From Chloroflexota bacterium (GTDB taxonomy: Bacteria > Chloroflexota > Limnocylindria > QHBO01), in assembly GCA_005879815.1 (NCBI GenBank), contig VBKA01000003.1, forward strand, positions 1 to 38,063: a DNA stretch of 38,063 nt. Reading direction: 5' to 3'. The position numbers were made by a program, and so were the translations under genes. Below the pieces are notes generated by a model. That model saw nothing but the letters and a program-made list of their open reading frames with translations. It was not told the DNA's origin and made no database searches. Each line of letters opens with the position of its first letter. Position 1 is the first letter of the stretch. Shown here piece after piece: positions 16,777-38,063 of the stretch.

Positions 16777-18528
16777 TCAGACGGCGAGCGGCTCCCGGTA
16801 CTCGCCGTAGACGCGGCGGAGGATGCCACACATCTCACCCAGCGTTGCGTAGGCGCCGACGGCCTCGATGATGGCCGGCATCAGGTTGACATCGCCGGCG
16901 CGCGCCTCGGCCTCCAGGCGGCGCATCGCGGCGGCGTGGAGATCCGTGTCGCGCTCCGCGCGCACGCGCACCAGCCTGGCCAGATGCCGCCGCTCCTGCT
17001 CAGGGGTGATCTCGAGGAGCGGGATGCGCACCTCCTCGTTCGGATCGGCGTAGCGGGTGACGCCCACGATCTCGCGTTCGTGCGCCTCGATCTCCCGCGC
17101 CTGCTCGTAGGCGGCATCGGCGATCTCCGCCTGGGGGAACCCGGCCTCGACCGCCGCGATCATGCCGCCCATCTCATCGATCGAGCCCAGGTACCGCCAG
17201 GCGGCCTGCTCGGTCTGGTTGGTGAGCGTCTCCACGAAGTACGAGCCGGCAAGCGGGTCGACCGTGTTGGCGGCCCCTGACTCCTCTGCGATCACCTGCT
17301 GCTGGCGCAGAGCGAGGAGGGCGGCCTCTTCCGACGGTACCGCCCACGCCTCGTCGTATGCATCGGTATGCAGGCTCTGCGTCCCTCCCAGGACGCCCGC
17401 CAGCGCCTGGATCGCCACGCGGGTGAGGTTGTTGAGCGGCTGCTGGGCGGTCAGCGAGACGCCCGCTGTCTGGGTGTGGAACCGCATCCAGGTCGATCGC
17501 TCGTTCTCCGCGCCGAACCGCTCGCGGGCGAGCTTGTACCAGATGCGCCGGGCCGCTCGGAACTTGGCGATCTCCTCGAAGAAGTCGTTGTGGCTGTTGA
17601 AGAAGAAGCTGAGCCGCGGAGCGAAATCGTCGAAGCGCAACCCGCGCGACATGGCGTCCTCGCTGTACGCGATCCCGTCGGCGATCGTGAACGCCAGCTC
17701 CTGGATCGCGGTCGATCCAGCTTCGCGAATGTGATAGCCGCTGATGCTGATCGTGTTCCAGCGCGGCATTTCGCGCGTGCCGAACTCGATCGTATCGGTC
17801 ACCAGCTTCAGGCTCGGGGAGGGCGGAAAGATGTACTCCTTCTGCGCGATGAACTCCTTGAGGATGTCGTTCTGCAGCGTGCCTGCGAGCTCGCTCCGCG
17901 GAACGCCTGCCTTCTCGGCGGCGACCACGTACATCGCCCAGATCATGGCCGCCGGGGAGTTGATGGTCATGCTGGTGCTGATCTCGTCGACCGGGAGCCC
18001 GTTGAGCAGGATCTCCATGTCTGCCAGGCTGCTCACCGCCACCCCGCACGTCCCGAACTCGCCTGCGGCGTGAGGATCGTCGTGGTCGTAGCCGTAGAGC
18101 GTGGGCATGTCGTACGCGATCGAGAGCCCGGTGCCGCCGGCGGCGATCAGCTTCTTGAAGCGCTCGTTGGTGTCTTCGGCCGTCCCGAAGCCAGCGAACA
18201 TGCGCATCGTCCACAGGCGGCCCCGATACCCGGTGGGGTGGATGCCCCGCGTATAGGGCGGCTCGCCCGGAAGGCCAAGGTCGTCGAGCTCATCCCAGCC
18301 GTGCGCAGCGTCCTGCTCGGCTTGCTTTCGGAAACGGTACCGAGGCCGATCCCGGTCGGGGTCGTTGGCCGGGTCGTACAGATCTTCCGGCGTGTAGATG
18401 CGGTTGATCTCGACGCCCGATTGGGTGATGAACCGCTGCCGCCGCTCGGGCGACTTCTCCAGCGCGGGTCGCAGGCGCTCTTCCTCCCATTGGCGCCGGT
18501 GATCACGCCAGGAATCATCGTCAGTCAC
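16777..18528 (-). CDS. adenosylcobalamin-dependent acyl-CoA mutase, large substrate-binding subunit (methylmalonyl-CoA mutase family; isobutyryl-CoA mutase-like signature)
   Basis: TIM-barrel mutase core ([65 protein letters not shown]-like [17 protein letters not shown]). There is no C-terminal B12-binding domain. The specificity positions read WTMRMFAGF and FIAQKEY, that is Phe and Gln where MCM has Tyr89 and Arg207. Start taken at GTG 18528 (VTDDDSW...). Confidence 0.9.
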
Positions 18529-18683
18529 GCTTGAATCTTCGCCGCTCAACCGGCGGGGTGGCAACCGACAGCCAGCGGTCAGGTCGCCTCGGCGGTCGCC
18601 GCGGACTTGTTGGCCAGGGTCCCGACAGCGATGGCGGCGAGCCATCCGAGGCCTGCGACGATCGCAATTCGCTGGAGGAATCG

Positions 18684-19946
18684 CTATGGATACAGGCCGC
18701 GCAGGGTCGTCGCGTCGGCGACGCGCTTGACCGCGAGCATGGTCGCGGCGCTGCGCAGGTCCACGCGCTGCTCCTCGGCCATGGAGACCACTCCCTCAGT
18801 CGCGTCATCCATGATCCGATCCAGGTTGTCGTGGATCTCCGCATCGGTCCAGAAGAAGGACTGCATGTCCTGGACCCACTCGAAATAGCTGAGCACCATG
18901 CCGCCCGCGGTGCACAGGATGTCAGGCAGCACGGGCACGCCCCGATCGATGAGCACTTGCTCGCCCTCGGGCGTGGTTGGGCCATTCGCCGCCTCGACCA
19001 CGATCGCGGCTCGAATCCGCTCGGCGATCGGCCCGGTGATCTGGTCCTGGAGGCCCGCCGAGACGAGCACAGCACAGTCCGTCTCGAAGATCGCCTCCCG
19101 CTCGATGGGCTCGGTATCGAGCAGGTCGGCAATGCCATCGTGCTCGCGCATCCAGGCGACGGCCCGGGTAACGTCGATCCCGCGCTCGTTGCGCACCGCA
19201 TGCTGGTCGTCCGCGATGGCCACGACCAGGGCTCCCGCTTCCTGGAGCGTCTCCGCCAGGCTGGACCCGACGCGTCCGAAGCCCTGGATCGCCACCCTGG
19301 CGCCGCTCAGGTCGATCCCGCGCTCTCGAGCCGCGGCCACCGTCGCCCGAAACGCGCCGCGGCTCGTCGCCTCGCGCCGGCCGGACGTCCCGCCTACCTC
19401 GAGCGGCTTGCCCACGACCACTGCCGCGACCGTGTAGCCGAGGTGCATCGAGAATGTGTCCATCATCCAGGCCATCGTCTGTGACCCAGTGTTCACATCG
19501 GGACTGGGGATGTCCTTGTCGGGACCGATCATCGGCTTGATCTCGGTCGCGTAGCGGCGGGTCAGGCCCTCGCGCTCATGCGGCGAGAGCCGCCGCGGAT
19601 TGACTACCACGCCACCGAACGCGCCGCCGTACGGGATCTTGACCAGCGCCGCCTTCCAGGTGTTCCACATCGCGTTGGCGCGCACCAGGTCCAGCGTCAG
19701 ATCGTTGGTGAAGCGCACTCCACCCGTGGCGGGACCGCGGTTGAGGTTGTGGTGGACGCGGTAACCGGCGAACACCTCGACGTGCCCGTCGTCGAACCGC
19801 ACCGGAAAGTGCACCTCCAGCTCACGTTTTGGTACGCGCAGCACCCGATGCATGCCTTCGTCGAGCCGAAGGCGCTGCGCGGCTGCGTCGAGCTTCTGCT
19901 GGGCGACCGTCCACACGCTGCGCTGGGCGGATTGCGCCGAAACCAT
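18684..19946 (-). CDS. Glu/Leu/Phe/Val dehydrogenase family protein with substituted catalytic-site lysines (GDH paralog)
   Basis: Co-linear with about 420-aa hexameric GDHs ([57 protein letters not shown], ends RGLYP). However, GPAKGG reads GPATGG, and GG(G/A)KGG reads GGAFGG (Phe codon TTC at 19619..19617). Start at ATG 19946, preceded by GAGAGG. Confidence 0.85.
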
Positions 19947-20129
19947 GGGCCACCTCTCTCGCACGTGACCGATGCGGCGCCGAAGCGCCGGCCCCGGAAG
20001 GCTAGCGCCTGCCGCCTGCGGCTGTCAGCCCAGTTTGATGGACGTGGCAAGATGTGCCACTCACCAGCCCAGGGCCGCCGGCGACTCGACTGCACTCGAC
20101 CGGAGCCCGATACATCGAGGTCCACCATC

Positions 20130-21068
20130 ATGGCCCCCCGCGTCGTCACCGTGACCGGGCCGGTCCCCCCGGAGCGGATCGGCTTCACGCTGCCCCACGA
20201 GCACACCTCCTGCCGTCCGGAGCTGGTCCGGACCCGCCAGGAATTGATGGACTTCAGCTCGGACGCCGAACTGATGACCGACGAGCTCCACGACTTCCGC
20301 CGCCGCGGCGGGAGCTGCGTGGTCGACCTGACCTGCGGCGGACTGGCGCGCGACCCGATCTGGTTGCGCAACCTCGCGACGCGCAGCGGGCTCTTCATCG
20401 TGATGGGCGCCGGGTGGTACCGAGAGAGCTTCTACCCGCCCGAGGCCGGCATCGACCGCCGCACCGTCGACGACCTGGCCGCTGAGATCGTCGCCGAGTT
20501 CGAGCACGGCGTGGACGGGACGGGCATCCATCCAGGCATCATCGGCGAGATCGGCACCGACCAGGCCTGGGTAAGCCCGCGCGAGGAGCGCGTCTTCCGC
20601 GCGGTGGCGCGTGCCGCGACCCGAACCGGACTCGCGGTCAGCACGCACGCCATACAGAGCCAGGTCGGGCTCGACCAGCTCCGCATCCTGGAGGAGGAAG
20701 GTCTGGACCTGGGTCGGGTGGTGGTCGGGCACGCGGACTCGATCCTCGACATTGATTACGCCCTGGCCGTGCTCGACCGGCAGGCGAGCATCGAGTTCGA
20801 CCTTCTCGGCCGGCAAGGTGACTACGCGACGGCTCGCGAGGTCGAGCTCGTGGAGCTGGTCGTGGAGCTCCTCGAACGGGGCTACGCCAGCCAGATCCTG
20901 CTCAGCCACGACATCTCCAGCAACGCGCAGCTGAAGGCCTACGGCGGCGCAGGCTTCGGTTACGTGGCCCAGCACTTCCTGCCCCACCTGCGGACCGCGG
21001 CGGTCGGCGAGGGTGAGATCGCGGCCATGACCATCGAGAACCCGCGACGCATCCTGACCGTCGCCTGA
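20130..21068 (+). CDS. phosphotriesterase-family (PTE/Php-like, amidohydrolase superfamily) protein
   Basis: TLPHEH metal motif near the N-terminus, IIGEIG (a Glu bridge as in E. coli Php), STH, GHAD and SHD metal-ligand motifs in the expected order. ATG 20130 with GAGG 9 nt upstream. Confidence 0.85.
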   Translation: MAPRVVTVTGPVPPERIGFTLPHEHTSCRPELVRTRQELMDFSSDAELMTDELHDFRRRGGSCVVDLTCGGLARDPIWLRNLATRSGLFIVMGAGWYRESFYPPEAGIDRRTVDDLAAEIVAEFEHGVDGTGIHPGIIGEIGTDQAWVSPREERVFRAVARAATRTGLAVSTHAIQSQVGLDQLRILEEEGLDLGRVVVGHADSILDIDYALAVLDRQASIEFDLLGRQGDYATAREVELVELVVELLERGYASQILLSHDISSNAQLKAYGGAGFGYVAQHFLPHLRTAAVGEGEIAAMTIENPRRILTVA

Positions 21069-21077
21069 GCGTCGACG

Positions 21078-22115
21078 TTGCCGAGCCGCGACCCCGTCGG
21101 AGACCTCAAGCGGATCGCGTTCCTGCTGGAGGCGGCGAGCGAGCCGCGCTATCGGGTGACGGCGTTCCGGCGGGCGGCCCAGACCCTTGCCGCTCTGCCC
21201 CCGGGGGAGCTCGAGGACCGCGTGCGACGAGGGTCACTCCAAGACCTCGCGGGCATCGGCGAGGTGCTCGAGCGCACGGTCGCCGAATCCATTCGAGGTG
21301 AGGAGCCGGTCTACCTGCGCCGGCTGGAGGCGACCGGAGGCCGCGCGGTGGCGGAGGGGGCGGCAGACCTGCTGGCCGCCCTGCGCGGCGACTGCCACGT
21401 CCATTCCGACTGGTCAGACGGCGGTGCCCCGATTCGCGAGATGGCCGAGACGGCGCGCAGCATGGGGCACGCCTGGATAGCGCTCACCGACCACTCGCCA
21501 CGGTTGACGGTGGCCAACGGCCTCTCGCCCGACCGGCTGCGCCAGCAGCTGGAGGAGGTCGCCACCCTGAACGTCGAGCTGGCCCCCTTTCGGATCCTGA
21601 CCGGGATCGAGGTCGACATCCTGGCGGACGGCTCGCTCGACCAGGAGGATGAGCTCCTCGCGCGTCTGGACGTTGTCGTCGCCAGCGTGCACTCCGAGCT
21701 TCGCATGGAGGGCAGGCTCATGACCCGCCGCCTGGTCTCGGCGCTGGCCAACCCGCACCTGGACATCCTTGGGCATCTGACCGGGCGCATGACCACCGGG
21801 AAGCGCCGCCGTCCGCCGTCCGACTTCGATCCGGAGATCGTGTTCGCGGCGGCCGCCCGCTTCGACAAGGCGGTGGAGATCAACAGCCGGCCCGAACGCC
21901 TCGATCCGCCGAAACGGCTGCTGCGCCTGGCGGTGGAGGCGGATTGCCGTGTCGCGATCGATTCCGACGCCCACGCCCCGGGGCAGCTGGCCTGGCTCCC
22001 GAACGGCTGCGAGCGCGCATTCCTGTGCGGCGTCGAGGTCGGGTCTGTGGTCAATACCTGGGATGCCGAGGCCCTACTGGCTTGGACGGGAAGCCACGTG
22101 AAGGCGGCCGCCTGA
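21078..22115 (+). CDS. PHP-domain phosphoesterase with N-terminal helix-hairpin-helix (PolX-like) region
   Basis: HVHSDWSDG, LTDHS, GIEVD, SVH, GH, and DSDAH motifs of the PHP fold are present. The N-terminal roughly 90 aa resemble the PolX 8-kDa/HhH region (LAGIGEVL). TTG start 9 nt after the PTE stop. Confidence 0.8.
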   Translation: MPSRDPVGDLKRIAFLLEAASEPRYRVTAFRRAAQTLAALPPGELEDRVRRGSLQDLAGIGEVLERTVAESIRGEEPVYLRRLEATGGRAVAEGAADLLAALRGDCHVHSDWSDGGAPIREMAETARSMGHAWIALTDHSPRLTVANGLSPDRLRQQLEEVATLNVELAPFRILTGIEVDILADGSLDQEDELLARLDVVVASVHSELRMEGRLMTRRLVSALANPHLDILGHLTGRMTTGKRRRPPSDFDPEIVFAAAARFDKAVEINSRPERLDPPKRLLRLAVEADCRVAIDSDAHAPGQLAWLPNGCERAFLCGVEVGSVVNTWDAEALLAWTGSHVKAAA

Positions 22116-22184
22116 CCTCTGTTGCCTGCCGCGTCATCGGCCCATACTGGCCGGGCCGCAGATCGCACGAGTCGGGAGGTCACC

Positions 22185-22388
22185 ATGTCCGTCGCCCGCG
22201 TCACCGAGCTCTCCTGCACCTCCAGCCAGTCCTTCGAGGATGCCATTCGCCAGGGGATGGAGCGAGCCACGAAGACGCTGCGCGGGGTCCGCGGCGCCTG
22301 GGTGAAGGAGGAGCGCGTGAACGTCGGCCGGGATGGCGCCCTGGAGTTCCAGGCCAACATCCTCGTCACCTTCGTCCTCGAGGACTGA
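22185..22388 (+). CDS. dodecin-family flavin-binding protein
   Basis: 67 aa, MSVARVTELSCTSSQSFEDAIRQGMERATKTLRGVRGAWVKEERV...VTFVLED, which matches the dodecin pattern (V.E..G.S..S.EDAI..A...A.KTLR.......E.R......V.F.LED). GGGAGG lies 5 nt before the ATG. Confidence 0.8.
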   Translation: MSVARVTELSCTSSQSFEDAIRQGMERATKTLRGVRGAWVKEERVNVGRDGALEFQANILVTFVLED

Positions 22389-31629: not shown

Positions 31630-31781
31630 CGGTCCCGAATGGTGCCCCTGGCAGCGGAGGTCAAGAATAGCGCGACCCTATTCAGGCGCCTAGATGATGG
31701 GCCGTTCAATGGCTCGTTCGTTCACACGGCATGGACCGATGGTGGGGAAGGAGAGTGGGCGGCTGCTAGCATCCCGAGGCG

Positions 31782-32357
31782 ATGGACGACGTGCGAGCCG
31801 GCCACGAGATCGAGGAAGCGATCCGGACACTCCTGGCGGAGATCGGCGAGGATCCGGAGCGTGCCGGGCTCACTGGGACACCCGCACGCGTCTCGCGGAT
31901 GTACGACGAGCTCACCTCCGGCTATCGGACCGATCCCGATGCGCTGATCAACGGCGCTTGCTACCAGGTCGAGTACGACGAGATGGTGGTCGTGCGGGAG
32001 ATCGAGTTCTATTCGCTGTGTGAGCACCACCTGCTGCCCTTCTTCGGTCGTGCGCATGTGGGCTATCTGCCGCGCGGCACGGTCATCGGCCTCTCGAAGA
32101 TTCCGCGCATCGTGGAGATGTACGCCAAGCGCTTGCAGCTCCAGGAGCGGATGACTACCCAGGTCGCGGAGTTCCTGATGGAGCGGCTGGGCGCCAAGGG
32201 CGTCGGCTGCGTCGTCGAAGCGAGCCATCTGTGCACCATGATGCGCGGGGTCAAGAAGGAGGAGGCGCGGATGGTGACCAGCTCGATGCTCGGCACCTTC
32301 CGTCGCGACGGCCGCACGCGGAATGAGTTCCTGCGCCTGATCGGGAAGGCGCTATAG
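31782..32357 (+). CDS. folE: GTP cyclohydrolase I (FolE type I)
   Basis: TPARVSRMY, the zinc/catalytic motif FYSLCEHHLLPFFG, GLSKIPRIVEMYAKRLQLQERMT, and EASHLCTMMRGV are all present. Confidence 0.95.
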   Translation: MDDVRAGHEIEEAIRTLLAEIGEDPERAGLTGTPARVSRMYDELTSGYRTDPDALINGACYQVEYDEMVVVREIEFYSLCEHHLLPFFGRAHVGYLPRGTVIGLSKIPRIVEMYAKRLQLQERMTTQVAEFLMERLGAKGVGCVVEASHLCTMMRGVKKEEARMVTSSMLGTFRRDGRTRNEFLRLIGKAL

Positions 32358-32360
32358 CGC

Positions 32361-32666
32361 ATGCCCTACGCGCCGCTGCTGAGCGAGGAAGAGATCGCCT
32401 CCAGCCTCGCGGCATTGCCGGATTGGAGCCGGCAAGGCAACGCCATCACGCGAATGGTCCAATGCGAGTCTTTTCGTGCCGCCGTCGCGCTTGTCGGAAG
32501 GATCGCCGACGCCGCAGAAGCGGCGAATCACCATCCCGACATCCTGATCCGATGGCGTCGCGTCACACTGACGCTCTCCACCCACGCCTCGGGCGGACTG
32601 ACCGCCAAGGACTTCGCGCTTGCCGCGGAGATCGACCGGCTGGCGGCTAGAATCGGCGCCGCATGA
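32361..32666 (+). CDS. 4a-hydroxytetrahydrobiopterin (pterin-4-alpha-carbinolamine) dehydratase family protein
   Basis: 101 aa. L..W...........F.F..F..A......IA..AE..NHHPD......V...L.TH...GLT..D..LA..ID pattern with the HHPD motif. Confidence 0.9.
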
Positions 32667-33088
32667 CCGCTGATGCCGGTGAGGAGCGCGTCGCGCCGAT
32701 CCGCGTGCTCATCGCGAAACCCGGGCTCGACGGCCACGACCGCGGCGCCAAGGTGCTCGCTCGGGGACTCCGCGACGAGGGCTTCGAGGTGATCTACACC
32801 GGTTTGCGTCAGACGCCGGAGATGATCGCGGATGCCGCCGAGCAGGAGGACGTGGACGTCGTGGGACTCTCGATCCTGTCCGGGGCGCACATGACGCTCC
32901 TTCCCCGAATCGTGGAGATGATTCGCAGCCGGCAGATGGACGACGTGCTGATCGCGGCCGGGGGCATCATTCCGGATGCCGACATCGGTCCGCTCAAGGA
33001 GGCGGGCATCGCGGAGATCTTCGGCCCCGGTACGCGGATCGGCGACATCGCGCGCTACTTCCGCGAGCACGCGCGCACGCGCACCTGA
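32663..33088 (+). CDS. acyl-CoA mutase small subunit, cobalamin (B12)-binding domain
   Basis: [35 protein letters not shown] carries the DxHxxG base-off/His-on motif, followed by SILSGAH and GGIIP. The ATG overlaps the PCD stop (ATGA). TAGAAT lies 9 nt upstream. Confidence 0.9.
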
Positions 33089-33091
33089 CCC

Positions 33092-34009
33092 GTGGCTGAC
33101 GGGCCGGCGCTGCTGACGGCGGCCGTCGGGGGCGATCGACGGGCGCTGGCCCGCCTCCTGACCGGGATCGAGAACGAGGACCCCGCCGTCCGGGCGCTCC
33201 TGCCCCGGATCTTCGCGGCTTCCCGGGGAGCGCATCTGGTGGGCATCACCGGGCCGCCCGGAGCGGGCAAATCGACGCTGGTGACGTCGGTGGCACGCGA
33301 GTATCGGAAGCGGGGCCGGCGAGTCGGGATCGTGGCCGTCGATCCCACGTCTCCCCACACAGGCGGCGCCATCATGGGCGACCGGATCCGCATGATGGAG
33401 CACGCCGCGGACCGCGACGTCTTCATGCGCAGCATGGCCAGCCGCGGCGAGCTCGGCGGGATCGCGGCCGCCACGTGGCTCGTCGCGGCGGCGCTGGACG
33501 CGGCCGGCTACGACCCGGTCCTGGTCGAGACGGTCGGCGCCGGCCAGGCGGAGCTGGAGGTCGCGCGGCTGGCCGAAACCACCGTCGTCGTGGAGGTTCC
33601 CGAGATGGGGGATGAGATCCAGGCGATCAAGGCCGGCCTGCTCGAGGTGGCCGACGTGGTGACCGTCAACAAGGCCGATCGCCCGGGCGCGGAGCGCTCC
33701 GCCCGCCAGCTTCGCGCCATGCTCGCGGGCGCCGGTGGCCGCTTCGCGGCTCCGCCGCCGATCCTGCTCACGATCGCCACGACAGGTGAGGGCGTAGCAC
33801 CGCTCGTCGACGCCATCGAGGCGGATCGGGCGCGCGCCCGCTCGCCCGACCAGGCGCGCACAAGGGCCCGCAACCAGCTCGTGAGAGCCGTCACAGAACG
33901 ATCTCGACGCCGCGCCCAGGGGAGTCCGGAGTGGGACGCGACCGTCGATGACATCGTGGAACGCCTCGTCGACCCGATCACCGCCGCGGACCGCCTGCTC
34001 GAAACGTGA
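33092..34009 (+). CDS. meaB: MeaB/ArgK-type G-protein chaperone for B12-dependent acyl-CoA mutases
   Basis: SIMIBI GTPase: P-loop GITGPPGAGKSTL, GIVAVDPTSPHTGGAIMGDRIRM (the MeaB switch region), ETVGAGQ, and NKAD. Confidence 0.9.
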   Translation: MADGPALLTAAVGGDRRALARLLTGIENEDPAVRALLPRIFAASRGAHLVGITGPPGAGKSTLVTSVAREYRKRGRRVGIVAVDPTSPHTGGAIMGDRIRMMEHAADRDVFMRSMASRGELGGIAAATWLVAAALDAAGYDPVLVETVGAGQAELEVARLAETTVVVEVPEMGDEIQAIKAGLLEVADVVTVNKADRPGAERSARQLRAMLAGAGGRFAAPPPILLTIATTGEGVAPLVDAIEADRARARSPDQARTRARNQLVRAVTERSRRRAQGSPEWDATVDDIVERLVDPITAADRLLET

Positions 34010-34251
34010 TCCACCACGTGCAGCTGGCGGCTCCTTGCGGCAGCGAGGACGCGCAGCGGGGGTTCTGGACGAGGACGCTGGGGTTTGCCGAGGTCGAGAA
34101 ACCGCCCGTTCTCAGCGGCCGTGGTGGCTGCTGGTTCCGTCGAGACGGCATGGAGGTGCACGTTGGAATCGACGACGAGTTCCAGCCAGCCCGCAAGGCG
34201 CACCCCGCGTTCGCGGTTGATGACCTCGAGCAGCCGCCGGTCGCTGGTTGA
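34006..34251 (+). CDS. VOC (glyoxalase/bleomycin-resistance/dioxygenase) family fragment, single beta-alpha-beta-beta-beta module, possibly truncated
   Basis: IHHVQLAAPCGSEDAQRGFWTRTLGFAEVEKPPVLSGRGGCWF...EVHVGIDDEFQPARKAHPAFAV fits the first module of a VOC protein. The ORF stops at 81 aa, and the next gene starts 22 nt later, so there is no room for the second module. The GTG overlaps the meaB stop (GTGA). Confidence 0.45.
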   Translation: MIHHVQLAAPCGSEDAQRGFWTRTLGFAEVEKPPVLSGRGGCWFRRDGMEVHVGIDDEFQPARKAHPAFAVDDLEQPPVAG

Positions 34252-34273
34252 TCGCTGGTAGGCTAGCGGCCCA

Positions 34274-35149
34274 ATGAGCATCGACCGCGTCTTCGTCATT
34301 GGCGCCGGCCTGATGGGGCACGGCATCGCCCAGGTGAGCGCCACAGCCGGCAAGCAGGTCACCCTCTCCGACCGCACCGCGGAGCTGGCGAACAAGGGCC
34401 GCGACCGAATCGCCGGCAACCTGGCGCGCCTGGTCGAGAAGGGGAAGCTCGATCAATCGCAGGCGGAGGCGATCCTGGGCCGCGTCGCCACCGCGGTCGG
34501 CCCCGACGGCGCCGCTGGCCACGACCTCGTCATCGAGGCCGTCTTCGAGGACGAAGCGCTCAAGCGCGAGACCTGGGTTGCGCTCACGAAGGCGGCCGAC
34601 CCGGACGCGGTCTTCGCGACCAACACCAGCAGCATCTCCATCACAGGGCTCGCCACCGCCACCGATCGGCCGCCGCGTTTCATCGGCCTTCATTTCTTCT
34701 CGCCGGTCCCGGTCATGCAGCTGATCGAGATCATTCGCGGGCTCGAGACCGATGACGACACGTACGACGCCTGTCGAGCCTTCGCCCAGGACCTTGGCAA
34801 GATCGTCATCGAGTCGAAGGACATGCCGGGCTTCCTCGTCAACCGGATGCTCGGCCCGTTCATCAACGAGGCAGTCTTCGCCCTGATGGAGTCCACGGGC
34901 AGCGCTGAGGACATCGACACGGGCGCCAAGCTGGGCCTCAACCACCCGATGGGTCCGCTCGAGCTCGCCGATTTCGTGGGCAACGACGTGATGCTGGGCG
35001 TGCTCGACGTCCTGTACCGCGGCTTTGGTGATCCAAAGTTCCGCGCCGCGCCGCTCCTGCGCCAGATGGTCACCGCTGGTCACCTGGGGCGGAAGACAGG
35101 ACGGGGCTTCTACCGCTACGACGAGAAGGGCAACCGGCTGGGTCGATGA
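34274..35149 (+). CDS. hbd: 3-hydroxybutyryl-CoA dehydrogenase (3-hydroxyacyl-CoA dehydrogenase, NAD-binding)
   Basis: VFVIGAGLMGHGIAQV Rossmann start, EAVFEDEALK, TNTSS, HFFSPVPVMQLIEI, PGFLVNR, and GLNHPMGPLELADFVG. Confidence 0.9.
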   Translation: MSIDRVFVIGAGLMGHGIAQVSATAGKQVTLSDRTAELANKGRDRIAGNLARLVEKGKLDQSQAEAILGRVATAVGPDGAAGHDLVIEAVFEDEALKRETWVALTKAADPDAVFATNTSSISITGLATATDRPPRFIGLHFFSPVPVMQLIEIIRGLETDDDTYDACRAFAQDLGKIVIESKDMPGFLVNRMLGPFINEAVFALMESTGSAEDIDTGAKLGLNHPMGPLELADFVGNDVMLGVLDVLYRGFGDPKFRAAPLLRQMVTAGHLGRKTGRGFYRYDEKGNRLGR

Positions 35150-36327
35150 GCGCGGCCGTCTCCGTCCATCGGCCGGACCCTTTCGCCCTCTCGCCGGAGG
35201 AGCGCCAGATCCGCGACACGGTGCGTGAATTCGCGCAACGCGAGCTCGCCCCCACGGTCGCCCAGCGTGACGAGGAGGAGCGCTACGACCGCTCGCTCTT
35301 CGAGCGGATGGCCTCGCTGGGCCTCACCGGCCTGCCCTACCCGGAGGAATTCGGCGGAGCGGGGATGGGCACCTTCGCCTGGATCCTCGCCTGCGAGGAG
35401 ATCGCCGCGGCCGACATGGGGATGGCGATCAGCCTGTCGGTCCACATCCTCGCCCAGCTGCCGATCCTGGTGTTCGGCAGCGCCGAGCAGAAGCAGCGCT
35501 TCCTTCCGCCGATGATGGCCGGCCGGCACCTGGGCGCCTTTGCCCTGACGGAGCCCGGCGCGGGCTCGGACGCGGCGGCCCTGGCTCTGCTCGCCGAACG
35601 GACCGATGGGGGCTACGCGCTCTCCGGCAGCAAGATCTGGATCACCAACGGCCAGGAGTCGGAGGTGACCATCGTCTTCGCCACTGTCGATCGCTCTCGC
35701 GGACGCGACGCGATCACCGCCTTCGTCGTCGAGCGGGAGACGCCAGGATTCCGGGTCGCGGGCCACGAACGGAAGATGGGGATCCGCGACTCGGTCTCCG
35801 CGGAGCTGGTCTTCGAGCGGGCACTGGTGCCGGAGGCGAACCGACTCGGTGAGGAGGGGGATGGGCTCAAGGTCGCCCTCTCGGCGCTGGGGGCGGGAAG
35901 GATCAGCATCGCTGCAGCCTGTGTGGGCCTGGCCCGATCGGCGATGGAGCACGCGGGCCGATACGCGCTGCAGCGGACGCAGTTCGGTCGAGCGATCGCC
36001 GACCAGGAGATGATCCAGGCCATGCTCGCGGATGCCGCCACTCGGGTGGAGGCGTCCCGCCTGCTCACTTGGCGCGCCGCGCGGATCCGCGACGCGGGCG
36101 GGCCGATCAACGCTCCGAGCAGCATGGCCAAGATGTTCGCGTCCGACACGGCCATGCAGGTGACCACCGATGCGGTCCAGATCTACGGTGGTGCGGGATA
36201 CAGCCGTGACAACCCGGTCGAGCGGCTGATGCGCGATGCGAAGGGAGCGCAGATCTACGAGGGCACCAACCAGATCCATCGGCTGATCGTGGCGCAGCAG
36301 CTGCTCGAAGCCCTGAGGCGCGGGTAG
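35146..36327 (+). CDS. acyl-CoA dehydrogenase (butyryl-CoA dehydrogenase-like)
   Basis: The ATG overlaps the hbd stop (ATGA). LTEPGAGSDA, YALSGSKIWITNG, and QIYGGAGYSRDNPVERLMRDAKGAQIYEGTNQI, with a catalytic Glu in the YEGT context. Confidence 0.9.
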   Translation: MSAAVSVHRPDPFALSPEERQIRDTVREFAQRELAPTVAQRDEEERYDRSLFERMASLGLTGLPYPEEFGGAGMGTFAWILACEEIAAADMGMAISLSVHILAQLPILVFGSAEQKQRFLPPMMAGRHLGAFALTEPGAGSDAAALALLAERTDGGYALSGSKIWITNGQESEVTIVFATVDRSRGRDAITAFVVERETPGFRVAGHERKMGIRDSVSAELVFERALVPEANRLGEEGDGLKVALSALGAGRISIAAACVGLARSAMEHAGRYALQRTQFGRAIADQEMIQAMLADAATRVEASRLLTWRAARIRDAGGPINAPSSMAKMFASDTAMQVTTDAVQIYGGAGYSRDNPVERLMRDAKGAQIYEGTNQIHRLIVAQQLLEALRRG

Positions 36328-38063
36328 TGGCCGAGTCGATGACGGATCCGCGGGTGGATCCGAGGGTGGCGACTCGGGTCGCGGCTCGGGTCGGGCCGCA
36401 GGTCGCGCCGTTCGAGCCGCTCGAGGTCGAGGGCGAGCCGGCCGCGAATCTCGTGGACCTGGTGCATCGGTCTGTCCTCGCACAGCCGGACCACGTGGCC
36501 CTGCGCTGGAAGCCGGCGCGCGGCCACCGCCAATCCGGAGAAGGCGACCCCAGGAAACCGGTCGCCTGGCGCACCAGCACCTACCGTGAGACGTGGGATT
36601 GGATCCGCGACGTTTCGCTCGGGCTGCAGTCGCTGGGCGTCGCCGCCGGCGACACGGTGTGCATCGTATGCCGGACCCGTCCCGAATGGCTGGTGGTCGA
36701 CCTCGCCAGCATGGCGCTCGGAGCGGTGACCTGCCCCATCTATCCCAGCTCCGAGGCGGGGCAGACGGCGTTCATCATCAACAACGTCCACGCCACGCTT
36801 GCAGTGGTCGAGAACGCGCAGCAGGCGACCAAGATCGAGTCTGTCCGCGCCGAGTGCCCGACGATCCAGAAGCTGGTGGTCATCGACGACAGAGGCACGC
36901 TGCCGAGTGACGCGACCACGCTTGATGACGTGATCGAGCTGGCGCCCAAGGACCCCGACCACCGCCGCGTCTGGGAAGAGGGCTGCCGGAGGATCACACG
37001 CGACCAGCTGGCGACGATCATCCACACTTCCGGCACGACCGCCAACCCGAAAGGCGTGATGCTGACGCACGGCAACATGGTCTACAACTACGAGGCGGTC
37101 AACCAGGTCGTCGACTTCTATCCGAGCGACGTCTTCCTGTCGTGGCTTCCCCTGAGCCATAGCTACGAGCGCGTGGCTGGCATGGTCGTCCCGCTGGCCC
37201 GCGGATGCGGGATCGCCTACGCGGAGCCACTCATCGAGCGCCTGCCGGCCAACATGGTCGAGGTGCGGCCGACGGTGATGGTCGCCGTGCCGCGCCTCTA
37301 TGAGCGCCTTTACGCGCGAGTCCTCTCAGCGGTCGAGGAGGCGTCCGCGATTCGGCAGCGCATCTTCTGGTGGGCCGCTGGGCTTGGGAAGCGCAAGTAC
37401 GCGAACCACCTCGAGGGGCGCTCGGATTCGCCGTGGCTCAGGCTGCAGCTCCGGATCGCGGACGTGCTCGTCTTCGGCCGCATCCGGGCGCGGACCGGCG
37501 GCCGGGTCCGCTATTTCGTCTCCGGATCCGCGCCGCTGTCGCGCGAGATCGGCGAGTTCTTCTACGCCATGGGCATGCTGGTGCTGGAGGGATACGGACT
37601 CACCGAGACGGCGCCGTTCGTGTCCATCAACCGCCCGGATGACTTCGTGTTCGGAACCGTGGGCCGACCTGCCCCGGGAACCGAGGTCAACGTCGACCCC
37701 GACACGGGCGAGATCCTGGTTCGTGGCCCGCAGGTGATGCGCGGCTATGTGAACGACCCGGCCGAGACCGCCAGGGCGATCGATGGCGACGGCTGGTTCC
37801 ATACCGGTGACATCGGCGAGCTCGACGAGATCGGTCGCATCACGATCACCGACCGCCTGAAGAACATCATCGTGCTGGCCAACGGCAAGAACGTCAGCCC
37901 GGCGCCCATGGAGGCAGCGCTGTCGACCTCGAAGTACGTGGCGCAGGCCATCATCCTCGGGGATCGCCAGCCCTACACCGGAGTGCTGGTCGCGCCCGAC
38001 TTCGACGAACTGCGCGGCTGGGCTCGCACCAACGGCCTGGGCGATGCCGGACCCGATGCGCTG
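36327..38063 (+). CDS. long-chain acyl-CoA synthetase (AMP-forming, FadD15-like), 3'-truncated by the window edge
   Basis: This gene is not on the supplied ORF track because it has no stop within the window. I translated it by hand: the frame is open from GTG 36327 (or ATG 36339) to base 38063. AMP-binding motifs are present: IIHTSGTTANPKGVMLTHGN, EGYGLTETAP, WFHTGDIG, and ITDRLKNIIVLANGKNVSP. Confidence 0.85.
   Translation, partial: MAESMTDPRVDPRVATRVAARVGPQVAPFEPLEVEGEPAANLVDLVHRSVLAQPDHVALRWKPARGHRQSGEGDPRKPVAWRTSTYRETWDWIRDVSLGLQSLGVAAGDTVCIVCRTRPEWLVVDLASMALGAVTCPIYPSSEAGQTAFIINNVHATLAVVENAQQATKIESVRAECPTIQKLVVIDDRGTLPSDATTLDDVIELAPKDPDHRRVWEEGCRRITRDQLATIIHTSGTTANPKGVMLTHGNMVYNYEAVNQVVDFYPSDVFLSWLPLSHSYERVAGMVVPLARGCGIAYAEPLIERLPANMVEVRPTVMVAVPRLYERLYARVLSAVEEASAIRQRIFWWAAGLGKRKYANHLEGRSDSPWLRLQLRIADVLVFGRIRARTGGRVRYFVSGSAPLSREIGEFFYAMGMLVLEGYGLTETAPFVSINRPDDFVFGTVGRPAPGTEVNVDPDTGEILVRGPQVMRGYVNDPAETARAIDGDGWFHTGDIGELDEIGRITITDRLKNIIVLANGKNVSPAPMEAALSTSKYVAQAIILGDRQPYTGVLVAPDFDELRGWARTNGLGDAGPDAL

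Follow-up and report, generated by a model that had tools for sequence, protein, structure and literature searches.

A clade of glutamate dehydrogenase paralogs without the catalytic lysine in Limnocylindria (Chloroflexota): putative GdhA-like non-catalytic subunits

What does a full-length relative of glutamate dehydrogenase (GDH) do when both of the lysines that mark the active enzyme are gone? The question is raised by a gene on contig VBKA01000003.1 of a Limnocylindria bacterium (Chloroflexota), of which a stretch of 38,063 nt (hereafter the window) was analyzed. The gene, at 18684..19946 on the minus strand, encodes a GDH-family paralog of 420 aa, referred to here as the Lys-less protein. 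Its sequence, the sequences of its closest relatives and the gene content of related genomes were examined, and the explanation that we favor, with moderate confidence, is that the protein is a GdhA-like, non-catalytic regulatory subunit of the canonical GDH of the same genome.

The Lys-less protein was placed in the ELFV or small hexameric GDH (GDH50) structural family on the basis of both Pfam domains, a length of ~420 aa and co-linearity with solved GDHs. PF02812 (dimerisation domain) spans residues 39-166 and PF00208 (NAD(P) domain) residues 185-417, both at full length, and a phmmer search of the PDB aligned residues 8-420 with Thermotoga maritima GDH 1b26 (E 3e-125). Both signature motifs aligned without gaps in this comparison. 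GPAKGGIRY of 1b26 is GPATGGVRF in the Lys-less protein, and the 1b26 segment FGGGKGGVRVDP, altered here, pairs ungapped with a 12-residue segment in which direct reading of the DNA gave ccg tac ggc ggc gcg ttc ggt ggc at the catalytic motif. Smaller departures from 1b26 were GGSKGR to GGTSGR, ANAGGV to CTAGGM and GFGNVG to GFGRVG, and the C-terminus reads RGLYP. A preliminary description made from the letters alone had reported the loss of both signature lysines (now Thr74 and Phe110), the neighboring changes to GGTSGR and CTAGGM and a Phe codon at 19619..19617, and every one of its sequence statements proved correct; no register shift brings a lysine to either position. Register shift and sequencing error (a single-base error was already judged unlikely there) were ruled out by the gapless motifs, the DNA reading and the absence of the lysines from 124/124 homologues. 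The longest open reading frame of the gene begins at a GTG at 19964. An AlphaFold2 model from a mixed alignment, a check that the same description had proposed, was a confident GDH fold, with a predicted local distance difference test score (pLDDT) of 88.9 and a template modeling (TM) score of 0.94 to 1b26; with a clade-only alignment pLDDT was low in domain I because that alignment was shallow. None of the NCBIfam GDH equivalog models reached its own cut-off, the top model (NF040817) scoring 439.8 bits against a cut-off of 750.

In order to establish whether the substitutions are peculiar to one strain, the clade was assembled from the 120 best homologues among 5.8 billion proteins together with loci from a scan of species-representative genomes, and 124 members were compared with 91 canonical GDHs. 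Neither lysine was present in any of the 120 best homologues (94-67% identity), which came mostly from soil and freshwater metagenomes and from metagenome-assembled genomes (MAGs) labelled Candidatus Limnocylindria or Chloroflexota, nor in the five further clade loci from the genome scan (76-62% identity). The clade as a whole, within the class Limnocylindria, spans 62-94% identity to the Lys-less protein and is without both lysines in 124/124 members. The boundary is sharp: at 62% identity and above all sequences are Lys-less, while at 57% and below all are Lys/Lys, including many from Limnocylindria MAGs. The clade was monophyletic in 100% of neighbor-joining (NJ) bootstraps. At the site of the catalytic Lys125, Phe110 (TTC, 19617..19619, minus strand), the clade has Met in 61, Phe in 44, Ala in 17 and Ser in 2 of 124 members; at the site of Lys89 of Clostridium symbiosum GDH, Thr74 (19725..19727, minus strand), it has Thr in 105, Ser in 16, Ala in 2 and Tyr in 1. 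All 91 canonical GDHs have Lys at both. The question of whether Thr and Phe are themselves conserved, raised in the preliminary description, is thus answered: the lysines are absent throughout, and the residues in their place are not fixed.

The lysine loss is a trait of the clade and not a strain-specific defect, and the Lys-less gene is under purifying selection. Pairwise ratios of non-synonymous to synonymous substitution rates (dN/dS) were 0.14-0.28, with dS near saturation, and the 420-aa reading frame was intact at every locus; strain-specific decay was ruled out by these ratios and by the uniformly Lys-less homologues. When the same two genomes were compared, the Lys-less protein was 67% identical, the canonical GDH 81% and the mutase encoded by the neighboring gene 80%. 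The Lys-less protein evolves ~1.8-fold faster than its canonical paralog, and constrained but faster evolution is as expected for a non-catalytic subunit.

The comparison with the 91 canonical GDHs also showed how far the changes extend beyond the two lysines. Canonical GDHs share 116 near-invariant positions, defined by conservation of at least 95%; the clade retains 83 of them at that same level and shows another consensus at 18. In the numbering of the Lys-less protein, with the canonical residue first, these are 74 (Lys to Thr/Ser), 87 (Glu to Leu), 91 (Leu to Asn), 94 (Trp to Leu/Trp/Phe), 95 (Met to Asn), 110 (Lys to Met/Phe/Ala/Ser), 148 (Ala to Thr/Ser), 187 (Ser to Thr), 225 (Asn to Arg, 124/124), 249 (Gly to variable), 287 (Leu to Phe), 296 (Pro to Ser), 298 (Ala to Gly), 322 (Gly to Ser/Gly/Ala), 346 (Asn to Thr), 350 (Val to Met/Leu), 352 (Val to Leu) and 353 (Ser to Gly/Ser/Ala/Thr). 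Arg225 lies in GFGRVG (codon 19272..19274, minus strand, computed from the gene start), where canonical GDHs have Asn in 97%. Thr346 (18909..18911, minus strand) replaces the Asn of the ANAGGV motif, invariant in the canonical set, and the clade has Thr in 113, Ser in 7 and Ala in 4; this site corresponds to Asn373 of C. symbiosum GDH, an alpha-carboxylate ligand by analogy with Asn261 of leucine dehydrogenase.

Equivalents in the C. symbiosum enzyme, assigned by motif matching, relate several of the changes to known contacts. Lys89 (position 74) and Ser380 (353) are gamma-carboxylate ligands, Ala163 (148) and Val377 (350) make side-chain contacts, and Asn240 (225) contacts the nicotinamide amide and the phosphates (bioRxiv 10.1101/2024.12.26.630402). 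Position 95, the equivalent of Gln110, is also among those changed. Features retained include Lys98 (the alpha-carboxylate Lys113 in C. symbiosum), Asp150 (the catalytic Asp165), the GxGxxG glycines, Asp246 after beta-2, the Asn of the ANGP motif and RGLYP; in a 40-member clade alignment Lys98, Asp150, Gly222, Gly224 and Gly227 were invariant. Set against an active GDH50 enzyme, the catalytic Lys is absent and the side-chain recognition set (Lys89, Ser380, Ala163, Val377) is altered, while Lys113, Asp165 and the GxGxxG fold are present, with the Asn of GxGN replaced by Arg. Several pocket positions vary inside the clade, the catalytic site included, suggesting a pocket freed from catalytic constraint instead of a redesigned active site. 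Arg225 is a fixed and not a relaxed change, and Thermus-type GdhA has Gln, Arg or Lys there; the substitution may alter or block cofactor binding.

A search for a possible catalytic partner, made with a Limnocylindria canonical GDH, returned two proteins, P0396 and P0500, both with GPAKGG and GGGKGG, whose genes share a contig with a Lys-less gene. P0396 is encoded at 33,419-34,687 of DASTEQ010000004.1 (43,055 bp), with Lys-less locus L008 at ~10.6-11.8 kb, and P0500 at ~47.1-48.3 kb of ERZ25039483 contig_2996 (131,925 bp), with the Lys-less P0033 at 70,032-71,294. The two genes are 22-23 kb apart in both relatives, and their products share 53-58% identity. When P0121, the closest canonical representative, served as the query instead, only Anaerolineae and Ardenticatenia GDHs were returned, none of them on a contig with a clade member, and this search was uninformative on co-occurrence.

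The position of the canonical gene in the source genome can be predicted from a conserved Limnocylindria block that consists of GTP cyclohydrolase I, a B12-binding mutase subunit, MeaB, 3-hydroxyacyl-CoA dehydrogenase, acyl-CoA dehydrogenase, acyl-CoA synthetase, thiolase and gdh, with canonical gdh as its last gene in L087, L088, L012-L016 and L038. From 31770 onward, the window carries the first six genes of this block in the same order. On the plus strand, FolE is followed by the B12-binding small subunit (IcmB-like, 32651-33088), MeaB (33089-34009), 3-hydroxyacyl-CoA dehydrogenase (34274-35149), acyl-CoA dehydrogenase (35146-36327) and an acyl-CoA synthetase that begins at 36342 and is cut off by the window end; this segment (31770..38063) is collinear with L087 and L088 and is kept across Limnocylindria. 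By this synteny the canonical gdh of the source genome should start ~1.7 kb past 38063.

These observations are brought together if the Lys-less protein is a regulatory subunit. In Thermus thermophilus GDH is a hetero-hexamer of the catalytic GdhB and of GdhA, an inactive regulatory subunit that mediates activation by leucine (PDB 3AOE chains E-H), as works citing Tomita et al. (2010, 2011) describe it. By analogy, a paralog of the 50-kDa hexameric GDH that has kept the fold, the hexamer surfaces, the dinucleotide glycines and the inter-subunit leucine site, and that is predicted to be catalytically inactive through loss of the catalytic Lys and of the glutamate side-chain recognition residues, would co-assemble with the canonical GDH encoded ~20 kb away. 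Ligands such as branched-chain amino acids or NAD(H) may then act through it to tune GDH activity, on the pattern of GdhA and GdhB. The view of the preliminary description that the protein cannot work as a canonical amino-acid dehydrogenase is supported by the clade-wide absence of both lysines, the canonical paralog in two relatives and the GdhA precedent. That description had left the choice between a pseudoenzyme and a new chemistry; the pseudoenzyme branch fits because the lysine loss is clade-wide, the gene is under purifying selection, a canonical paralog accompanies it in two relatives and GdhA has the same loss.

In order to compare the clade with GdhA directly, gdhA was recovered from metagenome contig L090, on which the next gene downstream is a gdhB with 99% identity to the PDB sequence, and the gdhA product was confirmed as 3aoe_E (E 5e-269). 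P0142, guessed to be a GdhA relative, was discarded, and PDB searches with the Lys-less profile or the motif region alone displayed no alignment to GdhA. Several points weigh against the assignment of the Lys-less protein as a GdhA-like subunit. The protein is 39.7% identical to GdhA versus 48.6% to GdhB and 57% to the Limnocylindria canonical GDH; this low identity and the lack of grouping with GdhA imply that it is not an ortholog, and the analogy rests on convergence. The paralogs are ~20 kb apart and form no operon, whereas Thermus-type gdhA is directly upstream of gdhB in 13/13 pairs. The adjoining gene encodes a mutase rather than a GDH. The leucine-site and interface residues are conserved family-wide, so that they are compatible with the model and do not discriminate a hetero- from a homo-hexamer. 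The canonical GDH that the preliminary description had asked about was located in two relatives, each time on the contig that carries the Lys-less gene; the 38,063-nt window contains no second GDH, and for the source genome the partner is deduced from synteny. Lastly, the lack of activity, the formation of a hetero-oligomer and the identity of the ligand are what we infer from sequence.

Phylogeny is consistent with a separate origin of the loss. Across the clade, identity to canonical GDHs was 49-57%. In NJ trees without the GdhA sequences, the clade grouped with P0124 and P0151 in 82% of bootstraps and fell inside the Limnocylindria canonical clade in 2%, contrary to raw distances, which were smallest to the Limnocylindria canonical GDHs; long-branch attraction may lie behind the grouping. 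P0124 and P0151 are themselves Lys-deficient representatives. In the tree of representatives the clade was likewise with P0124 and P0151, apart from the GdhA-like P0192. The lysine loss in the clade is probably independent of that in GdhA, convergent loss being the simplest reading.

The best-placed alternative, rather unlikely in our judgment, is that the protein acts alone, as a pseudo-dehydrogenase whose sensing of NAD(H) or an amino acid controls another enzyme, the obvious candidate being the product of the adjoining gene. That gene, at 16777..18528 on the minus strand, encodes a B12-dependent acyl-CoA mutase large subunit of the isobutyryl-CoA mutase (ICM) type (PF01642 at full length, TIGR00641 and signature residues). 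The preliminary description had placed it on the same strand across a 155-bp gap, which holds only when the GTG at 18528 is taken as the mutase start, giving 583 aa and agreeing with the 580-584 aa of its relatives; the longest open reading frame would start at 18645. The best PDB match of the mutase was the 2-hydroxyisobutyryl-CoA mutase HcmA. Compared with methylmalonyl-CoA mutase it has Phe for Tyr (RMFAGF versus RQYAGF) and Gln for Arg (FIAQKEY versus FMVRNTY), and it has Ala at the Asp of HcmA and is also without the Ile of HcmA. On the alignments we read the Phe/Gln pair as the ICM signature; a search of the literature collection used here turned up no support for this signature.

Several observations speak for a sensor. 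In 12/12 distinct related contigs examined, the mutase gene follows the Lys-less gene on the same strand, at gaps from 11 bp to 6 kb, and the Rossmann glycines and Asp246/Asp247 are invariant, as is the Arg in place of the GxGN Asn, which is fixed and not decayed. ADLP, described below, provides a precedent, and a canonical GDH beside an ICM-type mutase in two Acidobacteria loci shows that the linkage recurs. However, all 12 contigs are from one class, in which synteny around the gene pair spans at least 15 genes, and co-transcription is not conserved: one to three genes, some on the opposite strand, intervene between the pair in L003, L006 and L089, and L007, L010 and L011 have wider gaps. 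The neighborhood is thus conserved, as the preliminary description had asked, in that the mutase follows in all 12 contigs; yet because the pair lies inside a conserved synteny block and is interrupted in several genomes, its adjacency is no proof of function and shows no functional link. Furthermore, 14 kb separate the mutase gene from those of its own partners, the B12-binding subunit and MeaB, and the Acidobacteria GDHs are catalytically intact, which implies that the GDH-ICM linkage recurs in another phylum independently of the dead state.

More doubtful still is the specific form of this alternative in which the protein is not a GDH subunit but a pseudoenzyme that senses redox state or amino acids and governs the split isobutyryl-CoA mutase. 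If it were true, branched-chain amino-acid or short-chain acyl-CoA flux would be coupled to NAD(H) or amino-acid status, and the ADLP-CoA transferase system would have a counterpart derived from GDH.

The mutase itself is split and dispersed, its large subunit lying 14 kb from the B12-binding subunit and MeaB, and in Limnocylindria each GDH paralog sits beside one half of it. A large AAA_16/TPR/GerE (LuxR-type) regulator gene on the opposite strand separates the Lys-less gene from the mutase gene in L003 (9361-12651) and L089 (11368-15990), and in L089 an AraC-type regulator is additionally inserted. In Acidobacteria MAGs (L070:8312-11230 and L072:1486-5844) a canonical Lys/Lys GDH gene divergently adjoins that of an ICM-type (Phe/Gln) mutase large subunit, and these mutases are 55-59% identical to that of the window. 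One coherent but tentative reading of these contexts is that GDH serves branched-chain amino-acid catabolism in these organisms. Valine transamination would give glutamate, from which GDH would regenerate 2-oxoglutarate, and isobutyryl-CoA would be converted by the mutase into butyryl-CoA and then oxidized by the enzymes of the conserved block. An amino-acid-responsive regulatory GDH subunit would suit such a setting.

That the protein is an active enzyme with altered chemistry or substrate, such as an oxidoreductase that acts on a non-glutamate substrate independently of Lys125, we regard as improbable. Strong purifying selection on two full-length domains and the retention of Lys113, Asp165 and the cofactor-binding glycines would suit an enzyme, as would the replacements fixed in the clade at Asn95, Thr187, Arg225, Phe287, Ser296, Gly298 and Thr346. 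However, the catalytic position itself varies (Met, Phe, Ala, Ser), as do the equivalents of Ala163, Val377 and Ser380, the opposite of what a new active site would predict. No new conserved Lys, His, Tyr or Cys was found in the cleft in the clade alignment, Cys345 being common to the clade and the canonical Limnocylindria GDHs. In addition, GdhA, with the same Lys loss, is reported inactive, and the NCBIfam GDH models scored far under their cut-offs. Of the two possibilities left by the preliminary description, new chemistry is accordingly the disfavored one, given the varying catalytic residue and the lack of a new catalytic-type residue.

A decaying, non-functional copy or a sequencing or assembly artefact would account for the lost catalytic residues and the faster evolution, but is very improbable given the intact frame at every locus, the low dN/dS, the 83 of 116 canonical-invariant positions kept and the same state in more than 120 independent assemblies.

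The remainder of the window around the gene adds context. Divergently upstream of the GDH-like gene are a phosphotriesterase-family gene (20130-21068), a PHP/HHH_8 (PolX-like) gene (21078-22115) and a dodecin gene (about 22185-22388), all syntenic in all relatives; no functional link of these three genes (window 19947-22388) to the GDH-like gene is apparent. A scan of 18300-20400 found no promoter or terminator signals. Across the window (1-38063), an Rfam scan gave no match at gathering score, and thus no cobalamin riboswitch despite the B12 enzymes, and a tRNA scan found no tRNA genes.

Loss of the lysines was also observed outside the clade. Lys89 and/or Lys125 are missing, with varied replacements, from about 20 of the 150 nearest representatives of 50%-identity clusters, and the sequences concerned are scattered in the NJ tree. 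These include P0124, P0151, P0164, P0165, P0175, P0176, P0187, P0192, P0200, P0229, P0242, P0246, P0261, P0263 and P0267, among others, and P0192 matches Meiothermus-type GdhA. Dead paralogs of GDH50 appear widespread and of polyphyletic origin, suggesting that the phenomenon is much wider than the single characterized case, and non-catalytic GDH subunits may be a recurrent, under-recognized means of regulating the carbon-nitrogen junction. A practical consequence concerns annotation. Lys-less proteins routinely carry the label 'glutamate dehydrogenase (NAD(P)+)', and metabolic reconstructions in consequence include an enzyme whose inactivity is almost certain; a two-residue signature (GPxKGG and GGxKGG) separates the Lys-less from the canonical class cleanly.

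Among known systems, the Lys-less protein resembles the canonical GDH50 enzymes (1B26, GdhB 3AOG, P0500) in its fold (TM 0.94), in both Pfam domains, in Lys113, Asp165 and GxGxxG and at 83 of 116 near-invariant positions, and differs from them in the absence of Lys89 and Lys125 and in 16 more changes at near-invariant cleft positions. A second relevant system is ADLP, an alanine-dehydrogenase-like, NAD+-sensing pseudoenzyme that has lost its catalytic Lys and inhibits a neighboring CoA transferase in Thermus (bioRxiv 10.1101/2025.10.31.685773). As in ADLP, the catalytic Lys is replaced clade-wide by various residues, the Rossmann fold is kept and the gene adjoins that of an acyl-CoA-metabolising enzyme. 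Unlike the Lys-less protein, which is of the ELFV family, ADLP belongs to the alanine dehydrogenase superfamily, and its partner was shown biochemically and by cryo-EM, whereas the mutase link here is the synteny of one class, interrupted in several genomes.

The closest parallel is with GdhA. Both are GDH-family proteins of 50 kDa and equal length, co-linear with active GDHs, and both depart from the canonical residue at the equivalents of Ala163, Val377, the GxGN Asn and Pro292 (T. maritima numbering). GdhA (3aoe_E) has GPAKGGVRL and GGAAGG, with the catalytic Lys replaced by Ala, and Gly for the Asn of ANAGG; the Lys-less protein has GGAFGG and Thr at that Asn. T. thermophilus GdhA keeps Lys89, which the Lys-less protein has lost, although Meiothermus-type GdhA is likewise without it and has Leu there, and the acidic residue after beta-2 (Asp246) is kept here whereas T. 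thermophilus GdhA has Thr. Residues of the Thermus leucine site (the Arg of TRRY, the Asp of MDT and the Arg, Tyr and Pro of R-G-x-Y-P) correspond to the invariant Arg130/131, Asp163, Arg416, Tyr419 and Pro420. As with GdhA, a canonical Lys/Lys paralog coexists, in the Lys-less clade on the same contig in two relatives. To our knowledge Thermus provides the sole characterized hetero-oligomeric GDH with a dead regulatory subunit, and the clade carries the same hallmark into abundant uncultured soil and freshwater Limnocylindria, probably through an independent origin and with the gene unlinked from the catalytic one. The Lys-less clade is best read as a new lineage of an already known kind, the GdhA-like inactive subunit.

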